Positions 5,097-63,419 of a stretch of 64,000 bases of DNA are shown piece by piece. Under the pieces are notes generated by a model, which ran no database searches, had not been told where the DNA came from, and saw only the letters and a program-made list of their open reading frames with translations. The stretch comes from Bacteroidales bacterium (GTDB lineage Bacteria; Bacteroidota; Bacteroidia; Bacteroidales; UBA3663), in assembly GCA_017519885.1 (NCBI GenBank), contig JAFWRO010000018.1:3325-67324 (forward strand), in the 5' to 3' direction. Each line of letters opens with the position of its first letter. Positions within the stretch are counted from its first letter, which is position 1. A program made the translations under genes and the position numbers.

Positions 5097-5103
5097 TGTT
5101 ATG

Positions 5104-5225
5104 AAAGGTTCTGAAAAGTTTAGAAAAGTTCGAAAGGTTCACCCTTCAGAACATCTCAGAACCCTTCAGAACATCTCAGAACCCTTCAGAACATCTCAGA
5201 ACCCTTCAGAACATCTCAGAACCCC
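5104..5225. repeat. inverted phased-repeat element: G-rich arm (GGTTCTGAAAA GTTTAGAAAA GTTCGAAAGG) followed by four perfect 20 bp units ACCCTTCAGAACATCTCAGA
   Basis: Direct reading shows 5141-5220 is 4 x 20 bp with no mismatch. The left arm 5104-5140 is the approximate reverse complement type. Confidence 0.9.
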
Positions 5226-5232
5226 TTTAAAA

Positions 5233-6648
5233 GTGAATCAAAACGCACAACGCATCAGGTATATCATTGGCGACCTGCTGGCCACTGCAGCCGGCTGGTT
5301 GAGTTTCTACATATACCGATTTGATGTCACAGGCTTCCTTACCGTACCGACGCTTTATGAATACCTGACGTTGCCGCAAGTCGAACTCAACCTGATACTT
5401 GGTCCTTTTGCCTGGTTGGCGCTCTATGCATTTTCGGGATACTACCAGAACCCCTATTTCAAATCGCAGACCGACGAACTGCAGGTGACGTTCTGGTCGG
5501 TCATTGTCGGCACCCTGGTGGCATTCTTTGCCATGGTGATCGATGATGTGCCTTTCATCAACGACGAGGATATCGCCGTGCTGAAGATTGTCCACATCTC
5601 GCCCAAGACCTATCTGCAGATTCTACTGACTTTGTTCGGCTGCATCTTTGTCCCTGTCTACCTGGTGCGCTATCTGATCACACATCACGTCAATGGACAA
5701 ATCCAGAACGGACGTCTTGGCCTTCGAACCCTGCTCATCGGCGAGGGCAAGGCGGCACAATTGCTGCAACGGGAGCTGAAGGCTGAAAAACGGCAGAATG
5801 GTTATCTTATCATCAAGACAGTGCCCGACACAGCCAGTTACGAGGAGATACGGAAAGTGGTCGATGAAAACCACATCGAAGCCTTCCTCCTCGCCCCAGA
5901 CCAACACGATGTGCGCATCATCAACCATCGTGTCTATGAACTCCTGCCCCTCGAACTGCCCATCCGCATGAAGGCCAGCAACGAGGAGATTCTCAACGGA
6001 CAGGTTCACACTGACTCGCTGACCACCTTGCCCATGATGCAATACAGCACCGACCTGCTGAGCCCCTTCAAACGCAACCTGAAACGTCTTGCCGACATCA
6101 TCAGTGCCGTCTTGGCGCTCATCCTCCTGTCGCCGCTCTTCCTCATCGTGGCCATCATCATCCGTCGCGATTCAAAGGGCCCTGTATTCTTCAGCCAATG
6201 GCGCATCGGGCGTTCAGGCAAACCATTCCGCATCATCAAGTTCCGATCGATGCGCACCGATGCCGAGCAGGATGGTCCACGTCTCTCTTCGACCATGGAC
6301 CGACGCATCACTAAAGTGGGACGCTATCTGCGCAAATACCGCATCGACGAACTGCCGCAGTTCTGGAATGTACTGAAGGGCGATATGAGCCTCGTAGGGC
6401 CACGTCCCGAACGCGACTACTACATCCGCCAGATCATGGACATCGCCCCCTACTATTCGAAACTCCTACAGGTGCGTCCAGGCATCACTTCGTGGGGTAT
6501 GGTCAAGTACGGATATGCTTCCACGGTCTTCCAAATGGTCGAACGCATGCGCTACGACCTGATGTATATCAATAACTGCTCCTTAGCCGTCGATTTGAAG
6601 ATCCTTGGCTTCACGGTTCGCACGGTACTCACGGGGAAAGGGATCTAA
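5233..6648 (+). CDS. polyprenyl glycosylphosphotransferase (bacterial sugar transferase, WbaP/EpsB-like initiating enzyme)
   Basis: The C-terminal domain carries the sugar-transferase signature FRSMRTDAE...DELPQFWNVLKGDMSLVGPRPE, with N-terminal TM helices. The start is set at in-frame GTG 5233 (VNQNAQRIRYIIGDLL). The 44 codons from ATG 5101 are made entirely of the repeat element, which has no stop codon in any forward frame. Confidence 0.75.
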   Translation: MNQNAQRIRYIIGDLLATAAGWLSFYIYRFDVTGFLTVPTLYEYLTLPQVELNLILGPFAWLALYAFSGYYQNPYFKSQTDELQVTFWSVIVGTLVAFFAMVIDDVPFINDEDIAVLKIVHISPKTYLQILLTLFGCIFVPVYLVRYLITHHVNGQIQNGRLGLRTLLIGEGKAAQLLQRELKAEKRQNGYLIIKTVPDTASYEEIRKVVDENHIEAFLLAPDQHDVRIINHRVYELLPLELPIRMKASNEEILNGQVHTDSLTTLPMMQYSTDLLSPFKRNLKRLADIISAVLALILLSPLFLIVAIIIRRDSKGPVFFSQWRIGRSGKPFRIIKFRSMRTDAEQDGPRLSSTMDRRITKVGRYLRKYRIDELPQFWNVLKGDMSLVGPRPERDYYIRQIMDIAPYYSKLLQVRPGITSWGMVKYGYASTVFQMVERMRYDLMYINNCSLAVDLKILGFTVRTVLTGKGI

Positions 6649-6742
6649 GGGGTTCGAAGGCTTCGAGAGGTTCGAAGGGTTCGAGAGGTTCGAAGGGTTA
6701 AGAGCGGTTAAGAAGGGTTAAGAAGCAGCCATGTTTGGCTGC
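6640..6742. repeat. phased-repeat array (GGTTCGAAGG / CTTCGAGAG / GGTTAAGAAG units) ending in hairpin GCAGCC-ATGTTT-GGCTGC
   Basis: About 8 degenerate 9-11 bp units lie directly after the stop codon at 6646-6648. The 6 bp stem hairpin is at 6725-6742. Confidence 0.85.
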
Positions 6743-6770: not shown

Positions 6771-8588
6771 ATGTTTGGATTATTGCATAAAATGGTCGAA
6801 CGGATTGTCACTTGGCGAGAGAAGCATCTCACCGAGCAACAGTTCGTGCTGATTCTCGCCTTCTTCACCGGACTGGCAGGAGCATCGGCCGCTTTGATTC
6901 TGAAATGGCTCATCCACACCTTCCAGCACCTGCTCACGATGTATTTCGTGGTCGATGGAGCCAACTACCTCTATCTGCTCTATCCTGTGGTCGGCATCCT
7001 TATTGCCGGACTCTTCGTCCGCTATGTGGTGCGTGACGACATCGGACATGGTGTGACCAAGATCCTCTACGCCATCTCGCAACGCAAGTCGATCATCAAG
7101 GCGCACAACATGTACACCTCGGTCATCGCATCGTCTGTAACCATCGGCTTCGGTGGATCGGTGGGTGCCGAGGCACCTATCGTCCTCACGGGTTCGGCTA
7201 TCGGCTCCAACCTGGGACGACTCTTCCGCATGGACCAGCATACGTTGATGATCCTGCTGGGTTGCGGAGCCACTGCAGGTATCGCCGGCATCTTCAAGGC
7301 CCCTATCGCTGGATTGCTGTTCACCGTCGAAGTGCTGATGCTCGACTTAACTGCCTATTCCATCATGCCGCTGCTCATCTCGGCAGTGACTGCCGCCTCG
7401 GTGGCCTATATCGTCGAAGGCTCGCGTGCCCTCTTCTACTTCACCGAGACCATGGATTTCTCCATTGAGCGTCTTCCCTATGTGATTCTGCTTGGCATCT
7501 TCTGCGGCTTCGCCTCGCTCTACTTCACCCGCACCACGTTCGTAGCCGAAGATTTCTTCAAGAAGGTCACCAGTCCTTGGCAGAAATGGATTATCGGCGG
7601 ACTCTTCCTAAGCATCGTCATCTTCCTCTTCCCTCCACTCTATGGCGAAGGTTACGATGCCATCCAACACATCTACAACGGACAGTACCATGACATCACC
7701 GCAGGCTCAATCTTCTATGACCTCGACCGCATCTCGCACACTTTAGGCATTCCCAATGCTTCGTTCTGGGTGCTCTCGGGATTCATTCTCCTCGTGATGC
7801 TCACCAAGTCGTTTGCCACGGCAGCGACCAATGGTGGAGGCGGTTGCGGCGGCACGTTTGCACCATCGCTGTTCCTGGGCAACTTCGCAGGCTTCCTTTT
7901 TGCCTATATGCTCAACAAGGCAGGCATCTTCACCTTCCTCTCCGAGCAGAACTTCGCCGTGATGGGTATGGCCGCAGTGATGTCGGGCGTGATGCATGCT
8001 CCGCTTATGGGTGTCTTCCTTTCAGCCGAACTGACAGGACGTTTCGACCTCTTCCTCCCCTTGATGATTGCATCGTGCCTCTCCTACGGCACCATCCGCA
8101 TCTTCGAACCTTACTCGATCTATACCCGCCGTCTGGCACTCAAGGGAGAACTCATCACCCATCACAAGGACAAGGCCGTGCTCACGATGCTCAGCATGGA
8201 TGACCTTATCCTGCATGACTATCCAGTGCTCCATCCGCAGATGATGCTTGGCGAACTTGTCAAACTCATCTCCACGCAGGCCCACAACCACTTCCCAGTC
8301 TGCGACGAGGGCGGCACCTTTGTCGGCATCGTCACACTCAACGACCTCCGCAACATCATGTTCCAGCCGCGTCTCTACGAACGGATGAAGGTAGCCGACA
8401 TCATGATCGGACCAAAGGGAAAGATCCCCTCGGATATGAATATGGCTGAAGTGATGAACCTCTTCGACACGACAGGCGCATGGACCTTGCCTGTCATCGA
8501 CAATCAGGGCAAATATGTGGGTATGATGTCACGACAGCACCTCTATGAGACCTATCGTGCCCTTTTGAAGCAGTTCAGCGAAGATTGA
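6771..8588 (+). CDS. voltage-gated chloride channel (ClC) family protein with C-terminal CBS pair
   Basis: ClC motifs GSVGAEAP and GIFKAPIAG plus multiple TM helices. The C-terminal ~130 aa form a tandem CBS-like region. ATG 6771 was chosen over the upstream TTG. Confidence 0.85.
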   Translation: MFGLLHKMVERIVTWREKHLTEQQFVLILAFFTGLAGASAALILKWLIHTFQHLLTMYFVVDGANYLYLLYPVVGILIAGLFVRYVVRDDIGHGVTKILYAISQRKSIIKAHNMYTSVIASSVTIGFGGSVGAEAPIVLTGSAIGSNLGRLFRMDQHTLMILLGCGATAGIAGIFKAPIAGLLFTVEVLMLDLTAYSIMPLLISAVTAASVAYIVEGSRALFYFTETMDFSIERLPYVILLGIFCGFASLYFTRTTFVAEDFFKKVTSPWQKWIIGGLFLSIVIFLFPPLYGEGYDAIQHIYNGQYHDITAGSIFYDLDRISHTLGIPNASFWVLSGFILLVMLTKSFATAATNGGGGCGGTFAPSLFLGNFAGFLFAYMLNKAGIFTFLSEQNFAVMGMAAVMSGVMHAPLMGVFLSAELTGRFDLFLPLMIASCLSYGTIRIFEPYSIYTRRLALKGELITHHKDKAVLTMLSMDDLILHDYPVLHPQMMLGELVKLISTQAHNHFPVCDEGGTFVGIVTLNDLRNIMFQPRLYERMKVADIMIGPKGKIPSDMNMAEVMNLFDTTGAWTLPVIDNQGKYVGMMSRQHLYETYRALLKQFSED

Positions 8589-8696: not shown

Positions 8697-9482
8697 ATGA
8701 AAAAGACAATCACCCGCATCAGCGCAGTGCTCATCCTCCTTGCAGTGGGCATCACATCGGTCATTGCCCAACCCAGCCGTCATCATCATCGTGCAGGCTA
8801 TCGCAGCGATGGTTTCATCCGTGGCGTGCGCGACGTTCACACTGTGGCCAGTACTGCCATGTTGGGCTACGGCATCGCATCTTTGGACGACTATACGGGC
8901 ATCCGTTTCGGTTATAATGCAGCCTCGCTCCGTACCGACGGCTTCGACGACGTGTCAAGCGACGTCCAGTCGGGTGCCAGTGTCGGCATCGTCTTCGGCT
9001 GGTATCTCGGCAAAACTCCCATCATCATCGAGCCTGGCCTCTACTACTCTTTCAAAGGTGGCAAACTCGATGGCTTTGAGCGCCAATATGATTCACGTAC
9101 TCGTCTGAAGACCAATATGCATATGTTCGAAATCCCGCTCGTCTTCAAGTATGAAGTGCAGTACCACAATGCCGGTGTTTGCCTCCATCCCTTCTTCGGC
9201 GGCTTCCTGGCCTTCGGCATCGGCGGCAAAACCAAGAGTGTGGAAGGCAACTACACTGACAGTTGGGATACCTTCTCTGATGGAGCTGGCCAACTCGGAC
9301 GCACCGACGCAGGTCTCCGTATGGGATGCGGCCTCGGAGTGGATCACTTCTTCCTTGAATTGGCCTACGACTGCGGTCTTGTCAACCTGGCCAGCGACCA
9401 ATACGACTACTTCGGCTTCAACAATTACGACAGCGCCATCCGAAGCAACACCATCAGTTTCAGCTTAGGATTCAACTTCTAA
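8697..9482 (+). CDS. outer-membrane beta-barrel (porin-family) protein
   Basis: Signal peptide MKKTITRISAVLILLAVGITSVIAQ, alternating aromatic/Gly-rich strands and a C-terminal ...SFSLGFNF typical of OM beta-barrels. Confidence 0.6.
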   Translation: MKKTITRISAVLILLAVGITSVIAQPSRHHHRAGYRSDGFIRGVRDVHTVASTAMLGYGIASLDDYTGIRFGYNAASLRTDGFDDVSSDVQSGASVGIVFGWYLGKTPIIIEPGLYYSFKGGKLDGFERQYDSRTRLKTNMHMFEIPLVFKYEVQYHNAGVCLHPFFGGFLAFGIGGKTKSVEGNYTDSWDTFSDGAGQLGRTDAGLRMGCGLGVDHFFLELAYDCGLVNLASDQYDYFGFNNYDSAIRSNTISFSLGFNF

Positions 9483-9663
9483 GTTCTAAGGGATATTAAG
9501 GGATTCTAAGGGATTCTAAGAGATTTTGAGGGACAAATGTTTCTTGGCCCCCGAACTCTACAGGCGCTTCTCTCGGACGTGACCGAACGGAAACAAGGTA
9601 TCGTCCCTTAATATCCCCTAATATCCCTTGACATCCCTTCATATCCCTACTAATATCCCCTTA
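9483..9663. repeat. composite inverted-repeat element: GGGATTCTAAG-type array, ~78 bp core, inverted array (CCCTTAATATC type)
   Basis: The left arm is 9483-9533 and the right arm 9603-9663, reverse-complementary in type. Core termini GGGACAAATGTTT (9530-9542) and AGGTATCGTCCC (9596-9607) recur inverted at 62311-62358. Confidence 0.85.
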
Positions 9664-9673
9664 ACGCACAACC

Positions 9674-10426
9674 ATGATCATCTCTCTTCACGTCGAATAC
9701 AACGCACAATGGGGCGCACAACTTTATGTTACCACAGGCATCAAGCCGAAGTTTGCGCAGAAACTTCCTAAAGATGCCATCGAAATGGACAATGATGGCC
9801 GCGGCAACTGGTTTGTCGATGTCGATGCCAAACGGTTGACGAGCACGCCCTATCACTATGTGCTGGCCTATCAGCGTAGTGTAGTTCGCAACGAGTTCGG
9901 CAACGGCCACTTCATTGCAGGCATCACTGAAGCCGAAGGAGTTCCTACCCTCCGTGTCTGGGACAGTTGGCGAAGACTGCCTCAGATTCGCAGTTTTTTC
10001 TCCCTCGCCTTCCGTCCGCACAAGCGCGACAAATCGATTATGCACGACCAGCCCTTCCCTGCCGTCGATATGCTCGATCCCGATCAGTTCACCATGGTCT
10101 GTGAAGCCGGCAATCTCAAGGACGAGTGGGAACTTGCCCTCATCGGCAACGTTCCTGAACTCGGAGCCTGGCAACCCGAGAAAGCCCTGATCATGCAACA
10201 AATCAGCCGCAACCTTTGGAGCGTCAGTTTCTCACGCAATACGCTGAAGTTCCCGCTGCGCTTCAAGTTCATCGTCGTGAGTCGTCGCACCCATCAGTTT
10301 GTGGCATGGGAAGACTGCACCAACCGATTCTTCGAACCCAGTGTTCTGGATCCGGGCGACTCGCTGCTCATCTGCAACCAGCGCTTCACACGTCCCGCCT
10401 TCGATGACAAGAATGACAACCGATAA
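9674..10426 (+). CDS. stand-alone tandem CBM20-like (starch/glycogen-binding) protein with no catalytic domain
   Basis: The second half (LALIGNVPELGAWQPEKAL...LWSVSF...FKFIV) fits the CBM20 pattern. The overall layout resembles the N-terminus of Bacteroidota 4-alpha-glucanotransferases. There is no signal peptide. Confidence 0.6.
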   Translation: MIISLHVEYNAQWGAQLYVTTGIKPKFAQKLPKDAIEMDNDGRGNWFVDVDAKRLTSTPYHYVLAYQRSVVRNEFGNGHFIAGITEAEGVPTLRVWDSWRRLPQIRSFFSLAFRPHKRDKSIMHDQPFPAVDMLDPDQFTMVCEAGNLKDEWELALIGNVPELGAWQPEKALIMQQISRNLWSVSFSRNTLKFPLRFKFIVVSRRTHQFVAWEDCTNRFFEPSVLDPGDSLLICNQRFTRPAFDDKNDNR

Positions 10427-11150: not shown

Positions 11151-11199
11151 TTTCTCTAGATTATCTAGAGGCTCTAGAAAGTCTAGAACATCTAGAACC
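11151..11199. repeat. phased-repeat array of TCTAGA-type units (TTCTCTAGA TTATCTAGAG GCTCTAGAAA GTCTAGAACA TCTAGAACC)
   Basis: Five 9-10 bp units lie directly after stop codon 11145-11147. Confidence 0.85.
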
Positions 11200-11381: not shown

Positions 11382-12371
11382 TTAATCCTGGTTGAGGTTC
11401 ACGCGACGGAAAGCAATCACAGTGAGGCCCTTCTGAGCCTTGTCCATATACTGCTGAACGTTGATCTTAGCGTCGTTGATGAACTCCTGCTCAACAAGGC
11501 AGTTCTCCTTGAAGAACTTCTTCAGACGACCCTGTGCGATGTTTGCAATCATCTGCTCGGGCAGGTTAGCAGCCTTCTCAGCGCTAACTTTTGCACGGAT
11601 CTCACGAGCCTGTGCAGCCTGCTCAGCAGTGATCCAACCCTTAGCGGTGTTGCTATCGATATGATCCTCTGAGTCAACAAGGGCGGGGTTGATGCCAGCC
11701 TTCTTGAGGGCTACATCGACAGCCTTGGCAACCTGCTCGGCCTTGGTCTTCTCGATAGCCACAGCAAGTTCGTCGTCCTTCTTCTTCTGGGGAACCTCGT
11801 CAGCATTCACAGCAACAGGATTCATTGCAGCTACCTGAAGGGCAACCTCCTTGAGAACCTCAGCAGGACCCTCCTGGTTGTAAGCAACGATAGTAGAGAG
11901 CTTGTGGTTGAAGTGGTTGTAAGCTACAACTGAGGGACCCTCGATGTGCTCGTAGTTGCCGATCTCCATCTTCTCGCCGGTAACACCGATCTGAGCTACG
12001 ATAGAGTCCTTCACTGTACCATCCTCGGTAGGAAGAGCCAAAACGCCATCCAGATCTGCAGGCTTGTTGGCCATTACGAGATCCATGATCTTGTTGGCAA
12101 GAGCTACGAAACGCTCGTTGGTAGCAACGAAGTCGGTCTCACACTTCAGGGAGATGATAGCTGCGAAGTTGCCATCGGTACGTGCAATAACAGTACCCTC
12201 AGAAGCCTCACGGGCCTCACGCTTGGCGGCAACAGCCTGACCCTTCTTGCGAATCTCCTTCACTGCCTCCTCCATGTTACCATTGGTAACCTCAAGGGCC
12301 TTCTTGCAATCCTGCATACCGGCACCAGTCATCTCGCGGAGTTCCTTAATTTGAGCAATTGAAACTGCCAT
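11382..12371 (-). CDS. tsf: translation elongation factor Ts
   Basis: N-terminal UBA-like motif MAVSIAQIKELREMTGAGMQDCKKAL and EF-Ts dimerisation domains, located downstream of rpsB. ATG at 12371. Confidence 0.95.
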   Translation of the reverse strand: MAVSIAQIKELREMTGAGMQDCKKALEVTNGNMEEAVKEIRKKGQAVAAKREAREASEGTVIARTDGNFAAIISLKCETDFVATNERFVALANKIMDLVMANKPADLDGVLALPTEDGTVKDSIVAQIGVTGEKMEIGNYEHIEGPSVVAYNHFNHKLSTIVAYNQEGPAEVLKEVALQVAAMNPVAVNADEVPQKKKDDELAVAIEKTKAEQVAKAVDVALKKAGINPALVDSEDHIDSNTAKGWITAEQAAQAREIRAKVSAEKAANLPEQMIANIAQGRLKKFFKENCLVEQEFINDAKINVQQYMDKAQKGLTVIAFRRVNLNQD

Positions 12372-14479: not shown

Positions 14480-14500
14480 CACCCATCATCTGACAAAACT

Positions 14501-26508: not shown

Positions 26509-26590
26509 TGGTTGCTCACTTCGTTGCGCGCGAGCAAAGCTCGGAGCGAAATGTTCGAAATGTTTGAAATGTTCGAAGAGTTCGAAAGGT
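26509..26590. repeat. repeat element between susC and susD: conserved core (GGTTGCTCACTTCG..GCGCGCGAGCAAAGCTCGGAGCGAA) plus TTCGAA-type phased array
   Basis: The core 26510-26550 matches 35081-35121 (24 of 25 identical in the 3' block). The array ATGTTCGAA ATGTTTGAA ATGTTCGAAG AGTTCGAAAGG occupies 26551-26590. Confidence 0.85.
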
Positions 26591-29557
26591 TTAATGGAAT
26601 CGTAGCGTTACACCAAGACTGAGCTGGGTAGCCTGTGGATAGGCACTGTTGGAATCTACACCTGGGGTGATGCCGGTCGAAGGTACAATCGAAGGATCGT
26701 TGCCCTCGTACGAGGTGAGGGTGAACAGGTTCTTGGCAGTCAGATAGACGCGAAGGCTCTCGACGATTTCGCGCTTCTTGGGGGTATAGTTGTAGCCGAT
26801 GGTCACGTTGTCGAACTTGAAGTAGTTGCCGTTCTCAAGGAAGTAGCTCGAGATGATGCCGCCGCTCGAGTGGACATCCTCATACTTGGTATAGGCTGTG
26901 CGGAGCACGTTGTCGGTGCCTGCACCCTGCAGACCCATGCCGTACTTGCGCATGTTGAAGATGTCGTAGCCCAATGTGCTGCGGAACAGCATGCTCAGAT
27001 CCCAGTTCTTGTACTTGAACGAGTTGCTCCACGAAAGGAAATGCATGGGTGCACCATTGCCGATGTGGCGCTTGTAGCTGGGGTCAGCCTGCGAGGCAGG
27101 AACCTTGTTGCCGTCGTTGTCGAAGACAAGGAGAAGGCCGTTCTCATCGATGCCGGCATGCTCATAGCCATAGAACTGGCCGATCTTGCCGCCTTCCTCC
27201 ACGCGGAAGAAGTATTCGCTCGAACCTGGTCCTGGCTTGCGGTAGAGGTCGAGGTAAGCCATCTGATAGACGTCGCTCGAAAGCTTGGTGAGCTTCGTTT
27301 CGCCCATGCTCCAGTTGATGCCGGCGGTCCATTTCACGGCTGTCTTCGAAAGCACATCGTAGTCAAGTGAAATCTCGACACCGGTGTTCTTGGTCGTGCC
27401 CACATTCACGAGGATGTTGCTGTAGATGAATGGAGGCTGGGGAGCGGTATAGCTGTAGAGAAGGTCCTGCGAACGACGGTCGAACCACTCGACGCTACCA
27501 CGCAGACGGCTGTGGAGTGCCACGAAGTCGACACCGACGTTGAAGGCGGTCGATTTCTCCCAGGCCAAGTCGGGGTTAGCATTGAGCGAAGGTGCATAGC
27601 CGTTGATCCATTCTCCGTCCACGAAGTAGGCACCATAGTTGCTGTAGGTGGCAAGCGACTGGTAGGCACCGAAGTCCGAACGTCCCGTCACACCGTAGGA
27701 GATACGGGGCTTGAGGCTCTGGAAGATCTTGCTCACGCCCTTGGCAAATGGAGTGCGGGTGATTTCCCAGGCCACCGATGCCGATGGGAAGTTACCCCAC
27801 TTGGTGTTGGCACCGAACTTGGTGCTGCCTTCACGACGCATCGAGGCCGAAAGGAAGAGCATGTCGTTGTAGTTGTAGTTCAAGCGTCCGAAGAAGCCGA
27901 TCAGGGTCGATTCCGAGGCACCTGCCCAGAGGCTTGCCTTGCCTTCCTGCAGTGCGGTACCGTTGCCGATGCCGTACCAGCCCATCGAGTCATAGACGAA
28001 GTCCTTGTTCTCGTTGCCGCTCTGCTCCCAGTTGCTGCGCTCCCACGAATAGCCGAGCACGAGCTTGATCTGGTGCTCGTCGAGGTTCAGGGCGTAGTTG
28101 GTAAGCCATTCCAGGCGGTTGGTCCACCACTTCTGGTAGTTGACGTTGGCACGTCCGTCATAGCCGTTCCAGAACGATTCGCTCGAAGTGGAGGGTGTAT
28201 AGAAGTTGCTCTTCAGGTCGTTGTATTGCAGCGCATAGCTGAGCGAGGTGTTCAGCATGTGACGCTCGGTCTGAAGGATGTTGAGCTTCACGTCGGTATT
28301 GCCCAAAAGGTAAACGCGGTCGCCTTCGTTGATGTTTTCCCTCAGGTCGTTCACCGGGTTATGGATATCTGTAGGCGAATTGGGCTGATAGTAGGTTCCG
28401 TCGGGGTTCTTGACGGGAATGGTGGGGTTCATCGTAAGGGCGGTGTCAAAAAGGCCGTCGTTGCCCCAATCCTCGTGTACCCTGCGGCCCGAGAGGGATG
28501 CATTGAACTGCAGGCGGTTGTTGAGCACGCGCTGCTCGCCCACGAAACGTGCACCGTATTCCTTGCGCCCGCTGACGATGTCCAGACCGTTGCCCTGCTT
28601 GTAGTTGAGCGAAACGCCGAAGAAGCCGTTCTTGGTCGAGCTGTCAATCGAGAGATACTGGTTGAGGTTGTAGCTTGCTGCACGGGTGATCTCGTCCCAC
28701 CAGTCGGTGTCGCCACCGTAGTCCTGTCCACGGCGAGAACGACGGAACTCCTCGGTAGTGAGGATGCCCGGCTTCGGCTTGGCAATGTTGAGGGCTACAT
28801 AGCTGTCATAGGTCACGTTGGTGACGCCTGCTGTGCCCGAACCCTTCTTGGTGGTCACGAGGATGACGCCGTTGGCACCACGTGTGCCGTAGATGGCTGC
28901 CGAACCGGCATCCTTCAGTACGGTAATCGACTCGACGTCCTGGGTGGCGATGTTGCGGAGGTCACCGCCTGCAATGCCGTCAATCACGATGAGTGGGCCG
29001 TTGGAGGCTGTCAGCGAACCTGCACCACGCACCTGGATTTCAGTGGTGGCATTCGGGTTGGCTTCGGCAGTTGCTGCAACGTTAAGACCTGTCACCTTGC
29101 CGGCAATCAGCGCCATCGGGTCGCTGGCTGCACCCTGGTTGAAGTTCTCCTTCGAGATCTGAACCACCGAGCTCGAGATCTCCTTCTTGGCCATCGAACC
29201 GTAGCCCACTACGACTACTTCGTTCAGCTGGGCAACGTCTTCGCTCAATGTAACGGTCATACCGTCCTTGGCAGGAACTTCCTGGGGGTCGAAACCGATG
29301 TAGCTGATCACAAGGGTGCTGCCCTCGTTGCACTTCAACTGGAAGTTACCGTCGAAGTCTGTCACTGTTCCGTTGGTTGTTCCTTTCACCAGGACACTTG
29401 CGCCAATGATGGTCTCGCCTGTGTCGTCAACAACCACGCCATTGATGGTGGTCTGTGCCGAAACATCCAAGGCAAAAAACACGATCGCCAGCATTAGGAC
29501 GATTCTGAGGCTTGCGCCCATTCCCAATCGACGGGAATACTCAAATGCTTTTTCCAT
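26591..29557 (-). CDS. susC: SusC/RagA-family TonB-dependent outer-membrane transporter
   Basis: N-terminal carboxypeptidase-regulatory-like domain (ING.V.D..GE.IIGASV.VKGT.NG..TD.DG.F), a plug domain and a C-terminal barrel ending ...LGVTLRFH. Confidence 0.9.
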   Translation of the reverse strand: MEKAFEYSRRLGMGASLRIVLMLAIVFFALDVSAQTTINGVVVDDTGETIIGASVLVKGTTNGTVTDFDGNFQLKCNEGSTLVISYIGFDPQEVPAKDGMTVTLSEDVAQLNEVVVVGYGSMAKKEISSSVVQISKENFNQGAASDPMALIAGKVTGLNVAATAEANPNATTEIQVRGAGSLTASNGPLIVIDGIAGGDLRNIATQDVESITVLKDAGSAAIYGTRGANGVILVTTKKGSGTAGVTNVTYDSYVALNIAKPKPGILTTEEFRRSRRGQDYGGDTDWWDEITRAASYNLNQYLSIDSSTKNGFFGVSLNYKQGNGLDIVSGRKEYGARFVGEQRVLNNRLQFNASLSGRRVHEDWGNDGLFDTALTMNPTIPVKNPDGTYYQPNSPTDIHNPVNDLRENINEGDRVYLLGNTDVKLNILQTERHMLNTSLSYALQYNDLKSNFYTPSTSSESFWNGYDGRANVNYQKWWTNRLEWLTNYALNLDEHQIKLVLGYSWERSNWEQSGNENKDFVYDSMGWYGIGNGTALQEGKASLWAGASESTLIGFFGRLNYNYNDMLFLSASMRREGSTKFGANTKWGNFPSASVAWEITRTPFAKGVSKIFQSLKPRISYGVTGRSDFGAYQSLATYSNYGAYFVDGEWINGYAPSLNANPDLAWEKSTAFNVGVDFVALHSRLRGSVEWFDRRSQDLLYSYTAPQPPFIYSNILVNVGTTKNTGVEISLDYDVLSKTAVKWTAGINWSMGETKLTKLSSDVYQMAYLDLYRKPGPGSSEYFFRVEEGGKIGQFYGYEHAGIDENGLLLVFDNDGNKVPASQADPSYKRHIGNGAPMHFLSWSNSFKYKNWDLSMLFRSTLGYDIFNMRKYGMGLQGAGTDNVLRTAYTKYEDVHSSGGIISSYFLENGNYFKFDNVTIGYNYTPKKREIVESLRVYLTAKNLFTLTSYEGNDPSIVPSTGITPGVDSNSAYPQATQLSLGVTLRFH

Positions 29558-29574
29558 TGTTTTGGGTTTTAAGT

Positions 29575-29653
29575 CAATAATAATTGTTAGTTATATGTTA
29601 TATGTCAATTATCAATTGTTAATTATCAAATGTTAATTATTTATTGTTAATTG
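29575..29653. repeat. AT-rich phased array of TTGTTAATTG-type units
   Basis: AATTGTTAG TTATATGTTA TATGTCAATT ATCAATTGTTAATT ATCAAATGTTAATT ATTTATTGTTAATTG lies between the GH97 stop and the susC start. Confidence 0.75.
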
Positions 29654-34360: not shown

Positions 34361-34972
34361 TTACCGATAGTCGTTGGACCAAGGGAAACGACAGAGGGTA
34401 CGGTTGTGATAAAGACAGAAGTCGGCATCGCAGATTGGATGAGGAATAGTGACGGTGATGACTGCAACGCGAATGGTGATGTCGGGGAATTGCTTCAACA
34501 ACTGAAGACGAGCCTGTTGGATCGTAGCACCCGTGTCGATGGCATCATCGATGAGAAGGATTGAGGGGTTTGAAGGGTTTGAGAGGTTTGAGAAGTTTGA
34601 AGGGTTTGAGAGGGTTGAAGTGATATCTTGGGGCAGACGGATCGTGCCGATTCGAACGGGGTCTTTCCCCTTGCTGCGCCACTCGTTGACGCGGCTCTCG
34701 ACAATACGGAGAGTGTTGCACAACCACAGGGGCAAATGCTGCAACAGGCGATGCGCAAGCCCATTGCTCTTCTGTTCTGTACCAGGTCGCGACAAGCGCA
34801 CTTCGCAGTAAGCTGCTTCGGGGAAATCATTTCGCATCCGGCGGGCAACTTCGGCACCACCATGCTGAATGCCGATAAGGAGCGACGGAGTGAACCCTCC
34901 AGCCTTGACGCGACAGGAGAGTTGGCTACAAGCCTCAGCCAAAAGGGCAGGAGTAAAAGTTACAACAGACAC
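34361..34972 (-). CDS. type I phosphoribosyltransferase-family protein carrying an in-frame repeat insertion
   Basis: The PRPP-binding loop ILLIDDAIDTGAT is preceded by STLSNPSNFSNLSNPSNPS, which is encoded by the GGTTTGAGAG array. The start is GTG at 34972, with no in-frame ATG nearby. Confidence 0.6.
   Translation of the reverse strand: MSVVTFTPALLAEACSQLSCRVKAGGFTPSLLIGIQHGGAEVARRMRNDFPEAAYCEVRLSRPGTEQKSNGLAHRLLQHLPLWLCNTLRIVESRVNEWRSKGKDPVRIGTIRLPQDITSTLSNPSNFSNLSNPSNPSILLIDDAIDTGATIQQARLQLLKQFPDITIRVAVITVTIPHPICDADFCLYHNRTLCRFPWSNDYR
34558..34620. repeat. phased-repeat array (GGGGTTTGAAG GGTTTGAGAG GTTTGAGAA GTTTGAAGG GTTTGAGAGG GTTGAAG) inside the PRTase CDS
   Basis: Read directly from the sequence and in frame with the minus-strand CDS. 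Confidence 0.85.
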
Positions 34973-34975
34973 GGG

Positions 34976-35137
34976 AGGTGGAGGGGTTAAGAAGGGTTAG
35001 GAGGGGTTCTGAAGAGTTCTGAAAGGTTCTGAAGAGTTCTGAAAGGTTGCTCCCGTTGGTCGCGTCCGAGGGAAGCGAAAGGTTGCTTCCTTCGGGGCGC
35101 GCGAGCAGAGCTCGGAGCGAAGGGTGAAGAGGGGTTA
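34976..35137. repeat. repeat element: GGTTAAGAAG/GGTTCTGAAAG array, duplicated core, short array
   Basis: The array is 34976-35046. A core half-copy lies at 35045-35080 and the full core at 35081-35121 (GGTTGCTTCCTTCG GGGCGCGCGAGCAGAGCTCGGAGCGAA). The tail is GGGTGAAGAGGGG. Confidence 0.85.
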
Positions 35138-48582: not shown

Positions 48583-48647
48583 TATAATTGTTATTTGTTA
48601 ATTGTTAATTAATAATTGTTATTTGTTAATTATTAATTGTTAATTGA
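48583..48647. repeat. AT-rich phased array of TTGTTAATTG-type units
   Basis: ATAATTGTTATTTGTTAATTGTTAATTAATAATTGTTATTTGTTAATTATTAATTGTTAATTG includes an internal ~32 bp near-duplication. Confidence 0.8.
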
Positions 48648-48650
48648 ACG

Positions 48651-51125: not shown

Positions 51126-51130
51126 AATCA

Positions 51131-51180
51131 GTTGTTAATTGGTAATTATAAATTATTATTTGTTTAATTATTTATTTGTA
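51131..51180. repeat. AT-rich phased array (GTTGTTAATTGGTAATTATAAATTATTATTTGTTTAATTATTTATTTG)
   Basis: It lies between the two acyltransferase paralogs and overlaps the stop of paralog B. Confidence 0.6.
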
Positions 51181-54722: not shown

Positions 54723-55876
54723 ATTTTCCAAAGATTAAAGATTCTCCAAAAGAAGTGATAGAGGCGGAACAGTGGTTCCCAAAATCCCTCGCTGGGATAA
54801 TAGCAGGCAAAGACAAAATTGCGCCTAGTTTTTCGCCAATAACGACGCATCGAAGCCTGGCGGCTCAGTTTTTCCTTGTCGTAGCGTGTGTCGAAATGCC
54901 CGAAGTTGCCGGCCTGCATGATTTCGCTGAGCAACGACAAACCTTCCTTGCGACGTGGGGCGCAGTAGAGTTCATCCTCCTTCATACCAAAAACTTCGCG
55001 CATCACATACATCACGGCACCAGCCAATGGCTCGAGCTTCAGGGTCTTGATCATTGCCAGGAGGTCATCATATCTAGATATTCTAGAGTCTCTAGATTCT
55101 CTAGAAGTTCTAGGATCTCTAGACGAAGTCTCCTTATTCAGCGCGTCCAGGACGAAATAATAGTCCATCATCTGCCTCAACCCGATTCCTTCCTCAAAGA
55201 TGTGCTTATAGATGTGGAGAAGCTGATAGAGTGCATTAAACTGGAGAGTTGGCACAGCTACCAGCTTGTCTCCCATCTTGACCTTATGCTGCATCTGCTC
55301 TTCGCGCTGCTTCTCGTACCATGCATTGAGCTTTCGATTGAGGAATGGATTGTTCAGATAGACAGGCGAAAAGTGGATCTCCACCTCTGCATCGTCGAAT
55401 AAGGGATATTCGATGTGATGGAAGCGCAGGAAAGCATTCGGGAAACGCTTTCTGACATACTCCACCACGCGGCGCTTGGGTTGGTGGGTGGGATTGTCGT
55501 GGGGCAAGGTCCAGATGTCGATATCTCCCACCTGACGTTGCGAAGATAATTCGCCATAGAGCAATGCGTTGCCCTGTCCCTTGAGCAGGCATGCATCAAA
55601 GCCCTCCTGGGCCAAGTGCTCATGGATCTGCGCACTTCGTTCCGAGAGCAATTTGTTGCGCTCGGCAATACGTTGCGATTCCCAAATCCAGTCGATCAGA
55701 TTCTGTTCATCAGGCCACTGGTCTTTGGGCAGTCGCTTTACAGCTGCATAGCATATCCCTTGCAGCGATTGCTGCTCCGACAGCTGATGCAGATGCTGCC
55801 ACTCCGATGCACTCGGCGTCATCGACAGTCGCTCGCGACGCCCCAAAGCGACCTGAAGAAGTTCGAAAATCAGCAT
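54719..55876 (-). CDS. uncharacterised nucleotidyltransferase-family protein (NTP_transf_5-like) with an in-frame repeat insertion
   Basis: The N-terminus LLQVALGRRE...EW..L...S..Q.L.G and the GDIDIW motif are typical of this capsule-locus family as I recall it. SSRDPRTSRESRDSRISR is encoded by the TCTAGA array. Confidence 0.55.
   Translation of the reverse strand: MLIFELLQVALGRRERLSMTPSASEWQHLHQLSEQQSLQGICYAAVKRLPKDQWPDEQNLIDWIWESQRIAERNKLLSERSAQIHEHLAQEGFDACLLKGQGNALLYGELSSQRQVGDIDIWTLPHDNPTHQPKRRVVEYVRKRFPNAFLRFHHIEYPLFDDAEVEIHFSPVYLNNPFLNRKLNAWYEKQREEQMQHKVKMGDKLVAVPTLQFNALYQLLHIYKHIFEEGIGLRQMMDYYFVLDALNKETSSRDPRTSRESRDSRISRYDDLLAMIKTLKLEPLAGAVMYVMREVFGMKEDELYCAPRRKEGLSLLSEIMQAGNFGHFDTRYDKEKLSRQASMRRYWRKTRRNFVFACYYPSEGFWEPLFRLYHFFWRIFNLWKI
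55071..55125. repeat. phased-repeat array of TCTAGA-type units inside a CDS
   Basis: TATCTAGA TATTCTAGA GTCTCTAGA TTCTCTAGAA GTTCTAGGA TCTCTAGAC is read in the TCT-AGA frame on the minus strand, so no TAG or TAA codon arises. Confidence 0.85.
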
Positions 55877-62255: not shown

Positions 62256-62269
62256 AGTAGTAATAAATT

Positions 62270-62396
62270 GGGGATATTTGGGGATATTAAGGGATATTTG
62301 GGGATATTAAGGGACGATACCTATGCTTTGCCAACATGGGACTCAAAAACATTTGTCCTTTCAAATCCCTTAAAGTCCCTTAGAATCCCTTATAAT
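62270..62396. repeat. composite inverted-repeat element, second copy and opposite orientation to 9483-9663
   Basis: The left arm is (GGGATATTTGGGGATATTAA) x2. The core carries GGGACGATACCT (62311-62322) and AAACATTTGTCC (62347-62358). The right arm is TCAAATCCCTTAAAGTCCCTTAGAATCCCTTATAATC. Confidence 0.85.
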
Positions 62397-62405
62397 CATT
62401 CATTT

Positions 62406-63419
62406 TTATTCCTCTTTTTCCTCTTTTTCGTCGAAAATCTCCTTGCCGTTGTACAATTCCTGAACCTTCTTATAGGGGTTCCAGCTATGGAAGTCCATCC
62501 AGACATTGAGCCAGGCGCGAGCAATGGAGTCGATGGCATCCGACAAGATCATAACGCTGTATTCCTCGAAATGCTTCTTAAAGACATCGGTTTCCTTATA
62601 GTCCTTCCAACCCATATCTTCGAAGTCGGCAGGGACCATCTCGTAAGACATCAGATAGGAGCGTTGGGTCACAGCTCTCATATAGTCATACAGATTACTG
62701 TTTTTACTTCCCCATCCGGGGACAAACTCCCGGCTGAGTATTTCATCTTCTACCTTTCGAAGCAAACGAAAAACCCTGTCTGCCTTCTTCGGATAACCAT
62801 TACGGTCGTAGAAGAATCGCTGGTTGGGCAAATCCATCTTGTACGAACGACGAACAGCACATTCCCAAAAACTGCCGATGCAATTCTGGAGACGATGCAA
62901 CTGACGTGCATCGCAATGCATTGGCATATGGCCATCGGCAATGTAGTGCGCCATCATGAAGAAGCGCATTCCCAAATGATTGGCCGAGGGAGGAATGGGA
63001 TTGCCCTTTTCCTCACGGAACTGAATCTTAAAGTTGTCGTAGATGGTGTGATACATCGCATTGCAGCGGTCGCACAGGTTGCCCTGCACCAATGAGAAGG
63101 ACTTCTCCTTATAGAGTGTCGAGTTCTTTTTCACAAACTTATCCACTGCCATACCCTGAGGCAACGCCTTGAATGGCGAGGTTTCGCCGACCTTTTCGGT
63201 AGGGACATACTTGGCGACATGGCTCGTTTCCTGATCGTCGAACACGAGGTTGGGATACCACGCTCCTTGAATGACGAAATCGCGATAGCTCATAAACCAA
63301 TCGACGAGGCTCGAAGCTTCCTTGGCAAGTTCCGGGCCTTTTTTGCCTGTAAACAGCTCTGGCTTGCTCAGGCGCTTGATTGCCATAAAGGCCAACCAAG
63401 CCAATGTGTACTTTTTCAT
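62406..63419 (-). CDS. paralog of the PLC-like protein with two putative metal ligands substituted
   Basis: It aligns along the full length of 61293..62255 and retains AHYIADGHMPMHCD. It has TLAW in place of THAW, WYPN in place of WYPD, and an acidic C-terminal tail. Confidence 0.55.
   Translation of the reverse strand: MKKYTLAWLAFMAIKRLSKPELFTGKKGPELAKEASSLVDWFMSYRDFVIQGAWYPNLVFDDQETSHVAKYVPTEKVGETSPFKALPQGMAVDKFVKKNSTLYKEKSFSLVQGNLCDRCNAMYHTIYDNFKIQFREEKGNPIPPSANHLGMRFFMMAHYIADGHMPMHCDARQLHRLQNCIGSFWECAVRRSYKMDLPNQRFFYDRNGYPKKADRVFRLLRKVEDEILSREFVPGWGSKNSNLYDYMRAVTQRSYLMSYEMVPADFEDMGWKDYKETDVFKKHFEEYSVMILSDAIDSIARAWLNVWMDFHSWNPYKKVQELYNGKEIFDEKEEKEE

Follow-up and report, generated by a model that had tools for sequence, protein, structure and literature searches.

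The window analysed here (the whole 64-kb stretch of DNA) derives from an uncultured rumen Bacteroidales bacterium; its genes include SecDF, a SusC/SusD locus for starch and a polysaccharide locus, and proteins identical to those it encodes were found on ruminant gut metagenome contigs. Two of its spacers are occupied by opposed arrays of 10-nt units (decamers) arranged around a short core, as read directly from the sequence: copy 1 at 9483-9663 on the plus strand and copy 2 at 62268-62405 on the minus strand. Copy 1 separates an outer-membrane beta-barrel gene (OMP, 8697-9482) from the gene of a CBM20 protein, and copy 2 separates two genes of the polysaccharide locus. In both cases the flanking genes are co-oriented, as a first-pass annotation of this DNA had observed, and the polarity of the element relative to them is identical. 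The window holds only these two copies, and few extra ones were found in flanks.

In both copies, units of the form GGGATnnnnn on one side face nnnnnATCCC units on the other, and the core between them begins GGGACAAATGTTT and finishes AGGTATCGTCCC. The left arm of copy 1 (9483-9529, plus strand) lies directly 3' of the TAA stop codon of the OMP gene (9480-9482) and consists of a TTCTAAG remnant and four GGGAT-TCTAA decamers, which start at 9490, 9500, 9510 and 9520 (9490-9529; GGGATATTAA GGGATTCTAA GGGATTCTAA GAGATTTTGA). The core that follows on the same strand is of a long form (9530-9607, 78 nt; GGGACAAATGTTTCTTGG.CCCC ... AAGGTATCGTCCC) and includes a 28-nt block at 9567-9594, here called module X, that distinguishes long cores from short ones. 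The right arm (9603-9661, plus strand) comprises five TTAAT-ATCCC decamers, one unit being 12 nt long, and stops 12 nt short of the CBM20 start codon (ATG at 9674). Copy 2, taken in its own orientation, likewise starts directly 3' of a stop codon, that of the upstream gene (62406-62408). Its left arm (62355-62405, minus strand) has degenerate outer units (AAATGAATGATTATAA) and then GGGATTCTAA GGGACTTTAA GGGATTTGAA, its core is of a short form (62311-62359, minus strand, 49 nt; AGGACAAATGTTTTTGAGTCCCATGTTGGCAAAGCATAGGTATCGTCCC), and its right arm (62268-62315, minus strand) alternates TTAATATCCC and CAAATATCCC units, ending 12-15 nt from the downstream ATG (62255). By direct reading, the arrays of copy 2 span 62268-62315 and 62355-62399.

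This layout agrees with the first-pass annotation, which had described opposed arrays bracketing a core at 9483-9663 and an inverted second copy near 62311-62359, with shared 12-mers at the core ends and a shorter, differing interior in the second copy. TRF reported period-10 arrays at 9484-9533, 9604-9661, 62268-62314 and 62363-62397, i.e., all four arms. A two-unit pattern matched 14 times in the window versus 0.59 times expected, and 13 of the 14 matches fell inside the two elements. The arms of each copy are inverted and imperfectly complementary, over 46 nt at 78% in copy 1 and over 35 nt at 74% in copy 2. The exact 12-mers GGACAAATGTTT and AGGTATCGTCCC occur twice each in the 64 kb, both times at the elements and in the same order. 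Together, these measures place the layout beyond chance.

Further copies, which the first-pass annotation had proposed to look for, were indeed found. A specific pattern, requiring the left and right core ends 25-55 nt apart and a single ATCCC unit after them, matched 22 loci in rumen metagenomes, corresponding to about 15 independent sites beyond the window and thus about 17 with the window included, all with the same core ends. In GTDB, scanned with a query of four GGGAY-N5 units whose listed matches were mostly chance ones in high-GC genomes, at least two Bacteroidales genomes carry homologous elements: L015 (Prevotellaceae RUG465) and L088 (a reindeer Bacteroidales MAG). The specific pattern had zero matches in viral contigs (IMG/VR), and blastn against INPHARED and PLSDB gave no phage or plasmid match to the element; a phage or plasmid origin was accordingly rejected. 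The literature searched likewise yielded no description of this family. These results support the conclusion that the two spacers are copies of a dispersed family of small non-coding mobile elements from uncultured rumen Bacteroidales, and that this family was previously undescribed.

An alignment of 21 distinct cores separated short and long forms, measuring 45-46 and 73 nt between the arrays, respectively. Two conserved blocks, GGGAC-RAWTGTTT-YTTGGGTCCC and GCRAAGGTAWCGTCCC, flank a variable stretch, and reverse complementarity between the core ends is confined to GGGAC/GTCCC. Long cores are those that carry module X, and they were seen three times independently, in copy 1, in L133 and in L137/L151. 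A 50-nt core profile matched other sites down to E = 1e-16. Whole elements measure 89-201 bp, with 2-8 decamers in the left array and 2-7 in the right. The arms are polar across loci and species: left units combine GGGAT with TCTAA or TTTAA, and right units combine TTAAT or CAAAT with ATCCC, so that the right pentamer, taken as its reverse complement, reads ATTAA, ATTTG or ATTTA. Within one metagenome series, L141/L152 and L142/L143 have cores and inner left arms that are 100% identical and flanks that differ, one of them a tRNA gene, which indicates a recent copy event. Related structures of other kinds were also encountered. L035 has two half elements (5150-5215 and 6985-7046) directly upstream of ATG codons, each with a right core end (xGTATCGTCCC / TAACGTCCC) and an ATCCC array, the left arm being absent, and L019 (a Rikenellaceae MAG) carries a TTAGTATCCC array behind a terminator hairpin at 7119-7190.

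Comparison with relatives revealed empty sites at both window positions, another check that the first-pass annotation had named. At site 1, the order CLC channel - OMP - CBM20 - DUF4923 is preserved in relatives whose CBM20 proteins are 68-86% identical. The OMP-CBM20 spacer is 191 nt in the window (element with long core), 163 nt in the 96.7%-identical strains L006/L008 (element with short core); in the related species L153/L154 and L160 it is empty, at only 13 and 22 nt, respectively, and in L155-L159 it comprises 78-291 nt of unrelated sequences. One of these, the spacer of L158 (2710-3000; also in L159), contains other opposed arrays, with GAACAGATTGGAGGGATTT units facing their complement, and a -7-like box of its own (GTATCTTCG), suggesting that the spacer was colonised independently by different array elements. 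At site 2, the spacer is filled in the window and in L148 (150 nt), and empty in L161 (98% amino acid and about 97% nucleotide identity; 15 nt, TAA-TTAAAATCTATCACT-ATG), in L162 (88%; 15 nt) and in L164 (83%; 24 nt). The pre-insertion spacers thus measured 13-24 nt, and at both sites the insert begins right behind the TAA stop codon and leaves intact the 12-20 nt that originally preceded the next ATG. Taken at any single site, an empty spacer may reflect loss by deletion instead of gain; against this reading, site 2 is empty in three relatives of increasing distance. Copy 1 and L148 have TAA on either side of the insert, so a 3-bp TAA target duplication is possible, though indistinguishable from the TAA that every unit also contains.

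After insertion, the elements change rapidly. Between strains that are 96.7% identical, the number of differences per 100 nt rises from 0-10 to 30-54 at exactly four places, and these peaks (in the 5100s, 6600s, 9500s and 11100s) are all array-bearing spacers. The changes in array spacers are unit-number indels of 18, 21, 39 and 40 nt. At the copy 1 site, units are swapped and the long core gives way to the short one, module X being missing in L006/L008, while the outer arms are identical. The same switch between long and short core was seen at a second locus, in L133 versus L139, whose strains are 95.5% identical. Since both unit number and core form vary between strains, the element spacers constitute local divergence hot spots.

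The other three peaks lie at arrays of different make-up. At 5103-5224, GGTTCTGAAA-type units face TTCAGAACC-type units with no core between them; the right array is 100% regular (a 20-nt unit repeated 4.2 times) and is 40 nt shorter in L003/L005/L007/L008. The annotated start of a 515-aa sugar transferase falls inside this array, making the start that yields 471 aa more likely. At 6638-6725, GGGTTCGAA/GGGTTAAGAA units start at the end of the sugar-transferase gene and differ among strains by indels of 18 and 39 nt, and at 11155-11198, TCTAGAnnn units with a 21-nt strain indel precede a terminator upstream of a tRNA gene. Clustered differences from L008 were also noted at 12100-12300, inside the EF-Ts gene, which is called as 230 aa plus 73 aa in L008; this cluster could be an indel or an assembly problem.

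Several further spacers and genes share modules or array habits with the element. Module X occurs again at 35052-35070 (minus strand), in a spacer between GT2 and ComF-like genes (35049-35130, minus strand) that also holds GGTTCTGAAR arrays beside it and a second module, module Y (GCGCGCGAGCARAGCTCGGAGCGAA). Module Y has exactly two occurrences in the window, at 35097 and at 26526, the latter in the susC-susD spacer (26510-26591, minus strand) together with a CGAAATGTT array. Module X, extended to about 45 nt, was also found in frame within the gene of a hybrid two-component sensor, as a tandem pair in L137 (13075-13165) and singly in L132 (1-45), where it encodes LSLPSDATNGSNPSN / LSLPSDVTNGSNPSA in the linker between the HATPase and receiver domains. 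In-frame arrays of period 9 lie at 34552-34620, encoding TLSNPSNFSNLSNPSNPS just before the PRPP loop of the ComF-like phosphoribosyltransferase, and at 55073-55123, encoding SRDPRTSRESRDSRISR in an NTP_transf_5 protein; the array period is 9 within genes and mostly 10 or 7 between them. Arrays of 7-nt units (TAATTGT and relatives) occupy spacers between co-oriented minus-strand genes at 29558-29646, 48583-48650 and 51126-51163, and the mRNA leaders there are A-rich and unstructured, directly before start codons. The nested module X and the neighbouring mosaic spacers with modules X and Y fit the wording "BIME-like mosaic" that the first-pass annotation had used.

The position of the element among genes and its predicted folding bear on what it might do for its host. 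Of 16 sites, about 12 have the left arm adjoining the stop codon of a co-oriented gene, and at five of these about 12 the ORF extends 10-37 nt into the array and ends on one of the array's TAA triplets. On the right lies either a co-oriented ATG after 11-46 nt (7 sites, in the window's orientation) or the end of a convergent gene; three tandem-context sites are reversed, with the next gene start 124-267 nt away. For a ribosome entering the element, all reading frames are closed by a stop codon within about 49 nt (median). The window copies are predicted to fold into hairpins with z-scores of -4.0 and -3.25, and predicted fold energies across the elements range from -36 to -95 kcal/mol (z about -3 to -4). 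Such placement and strong predicted folds, along with the precedents that REP sequences offer for a downstream location and an RNA function (PMC3733652), speak for the main rival explanation: a host-selected RNA element of REP/BIME type, whose hairpin would shield the upstream cistron from 3' exonucleases or, by acting as a site of processing or partial termination, uncouple the expression of adjacent cistrons, its mobility being secondary. However, complementarity between the arms is no higher within an element (0.724) than between elements (0.737; permutation p = 0.92), indicating that its source is the shared unit rather than selection specific to an element or recent inverted duplication, and no compensatory evolution of the arms was found. 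Selection on a sense-strand RNA through G-U pairs was rejected, as the trend is the opposite: in 15 of 22 elements, the more stable fold is that of the antisense strand. Nor does a U-tract follow the hairpin at copies 1 and 2, and a conserved RNA structure of the core was rejected as well, RNAalifold on 16 cores yielding -2.4 kcal/mol with GGGAC/GTCCC closing pairs only and no meaningful covariation. Near-identical strains also live without the element. On all these grounds, we consider this explanation unlikely. Searches for a known RNA family ended in rejection too, Rfam giving nothing relevant in the whole window at gathering score and only sub-threshold hairpin look-alikes in both elements at E <= 1. 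A leader peptide from the conserved ATG of AAATGTTT was discarded on the grounds that several copies read TTG and that indels shift the frame between copies.

A role at the DNA level, with decamers spaced by a helical turn and core blocks forming a protein-binding platform or bent DNA, and possibly a promoter for the downstream gene, would account for the array period of exactly 10 bp, for polar arm types and for conservation that resides in sequence blocks and not in pairing, and the BrickBuilt MITE of P. gingivalis is known to have promoter activity (PMC4596501). The reverse strand of the core even holds AACATTTG, which matches 7 of the 8 positions of the Bacteroidetes -7 box. Yet the forward strand of the element has no TAnnTTTG box, although genuine ones (TATCTTTG) are easily recognised at other places in the window (near 14480, 15360 and 31940), and a Bacteroidetes promoter of the form TTTG-N19-21-TAnnTTTG was rejected for the element; a sigma-70 scan returned a single chance-level match. 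Moreover, core length at a single locus can be either 45 or 73 nt, a difference that no promoter of fixed spacing would survive, and the arrays of this genome are built from many different decamer sequences, more than a single binding protein could account for. Such a cassette thus appears quite improbable. Selection of the GGG-N7 tracts (four or more repeats) for a structural role on one strand, as a G-quadruplex or i-motif, is very improbable: the arrays satisfy the loosest G3N1-7 definition and enriched G-rich repeats have precedent (PMC4692102), but the loops are as long as that definition permits (7 nt), a duplex hairpin is favoured by the C-rich arm opposite, and sister array families of the same genome have no GGG runs (GGTTCTGAAG, TCTAGAACA). 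We give the least credence of all, and hardly any, to the proposition that there is no element and that decamers expanded locally and independently, with the 12-mers shared by chance. This genome does make many unrelated short arrays, but each exact 12-mer is confined to the two sites in the same order, the core profile reaches its 1e-16 matches elsewhere, and different loci carry identical cores.

A family of small, polar, non-coding insertion elements that are copied by an enzyme and remodelled after landing is, in our judgement, probably the best explanation of both spacers. Directly seen are the dispersal, the presence or absence at orthologous sites, the position behind a stop codon and the fast change after insertion. 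The copying enzyme would be encoded elsewhere in the genome and would recognise the conserved core blocks, the helical-turn-spaced decamers or both. Unit number would change through slipped-strand mispairing, and cores could be switched by recombination between copies. The element is probably co-transcribed with its operon and may then form a long imperfect hairpin. Most likely it is tolerated rather than required, given that it leaves the original 12-20 nt ahead of the next ATG in place and that TAA stops are abundant in it. In agreement with the first-pass annotation, which had listed no transposase in the window, none of the window ORFs matched a transposase Pfam family, Y1_Tnp included. 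About 0.5 Mb of related loci contained no long element bounded by the same arrays; the sole pair of widely separated arrays, in L035, proved to be a fortuitous match within a gene, and the candidate autonomous parent was therefore rejected. A broader version is conceivable but unlikely, in which a modular system of 9-10 nt array families and hairpin modules (X and Y) is copied into operon spacers and in-frame protein linkers, the arrays acting as multi-site platforms for an unknown recombinase or transposase by a mechanism unlike terminal-inverted-repeat and REP/RAYT transposition.

If the insertion-element explanation holds, a small mobile DNA of uncultured rumen Bacteroidales lands repeatedly inside operons, including a polysaccharide locus, with a related mosaic in the susC-susD spacer, and its family creates the fastest-evolving spots between strains that are otherwise 97-99.9% identical. 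The element spacers are thereby relevant to strain typing, to assembly errors and to how operon expression may be rewired, and the filled and empty pairs at about 97% identity offer clean experimental material. The polar arms of 10-nt units, the conserved core and the occurrence of module X in a sensor protein agree poorly with the definitions of MITEs or REPs and point to a mobilising enzyme or a mode of copying that has yet to be discovered.

Set against known systems, the element resembles bacterial MITEs (e.g., Correia/NEMIS of Neisseria and BrickBuilt) in its small size, lack of coding sequence, intergenic location, multiple copies and opposed ends, and in being present or absent according to strain. 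It is short (89-201 bp), has stops throughout and neither an ORF nor a Pfam match, is dispersed over unrelated loci at its independent sites, and shows insertion polymorphism at both window sites. It appears to differ from MITEs in having no sharp terminal inverted repeats: the arms are 72-78% complementary, polar and of different unit consensus on the left and right, and the outer ends are fuzzy, with degenerate units in variable number. Thus, the MITE- or BIME-like mobile reading of the first-pass annotation was borne out with respect to dispersal, empty sites and mosaic modules, and does not extend to strict class membership. With polar non-identical arms, no provable target duplication and no cognate transposase seen, "MITE-like" is a description and not a demonstrated membership.

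REP and BIME sequences of Enterobacteria, with their GTAG/CGTC-tagged REPs (PMC3733652, PMC2817692), share with the element an extragenic location downstream of coding regions or between cistrons, opposed units with other conserved motifs between them in a mosaic, and likely co-transcribed hairpins; many core ends of the window family even read CGTCCC or TGTCCC. A REP is a stem-loop of 20-40 nt, an imperfect palindrome with a GTAG or CGTC head, whereas the unit here is a non-palindromic 10-nt decamer, the CGTC of the core ends has no 8-9 bp stem behind it, and no RAYT was seen among the window ORFs. The element also departs from structured RNAs of Rfam, with no gathering-score match and no covarying structure, and from invertible promoters of the Bacteroides fin/Mpi type, which occur in both orientations in populations; an invertible segment was rejected here, as all nine orthologous groups with two or more assemblies show a single orientation. 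In the Neisseria intergenic mosaic elements (NIMEs), dRS3 repeats (ATTCCC-N8-GGGAAT) flank RS units, and the likeness lies in short repeats that flank variable spacer units of 50-150 bp, in recombination-prone mosaics and, superficially, in the repeat letters (ATCCC/GGGAT in the window versus ATTCCC/GGGAAT in dRS3). This is a likeness without shown homology, and dRS3 is a 20-bp palindrome and NIMEs are long alternating dRS3/RS arrays, whereas the window element has one core. BOX of Streptococcus pneumoniae (boxA-boxB(n)-boxC) is likewise modular and located in spacers, with a variable internal tandem module and partly complementary outer modules, but its variable module is central and 45 nt long, and its sequence and host are unrelated. 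Rickettsia palindromic elements (RPEs) are comparable for module X only, in its in-frame occurrence inside a protein-coding gene; there is no sequence relation, and the main window element was not seen inside genes. The comparison supports the conclusion that, in its behaviour, the element is akin to a MITE or a mosaic of the BIME/NIME type, without implying strict membership of the MITEs, REPs or BIMEs. Its nearest described relative within the same order is BrickBuilt of P. gingivalis, in which a central 23-nt minisatellite lies between a leader and a tail with short terminal inverted repeats (PMC4596501). The two share a Bacteroidales host and the combination of a variable-number tandem repeat with unique conserved segments, in an inverse layout: the window element places its repeats in the arms and its unique sequence in the centre.
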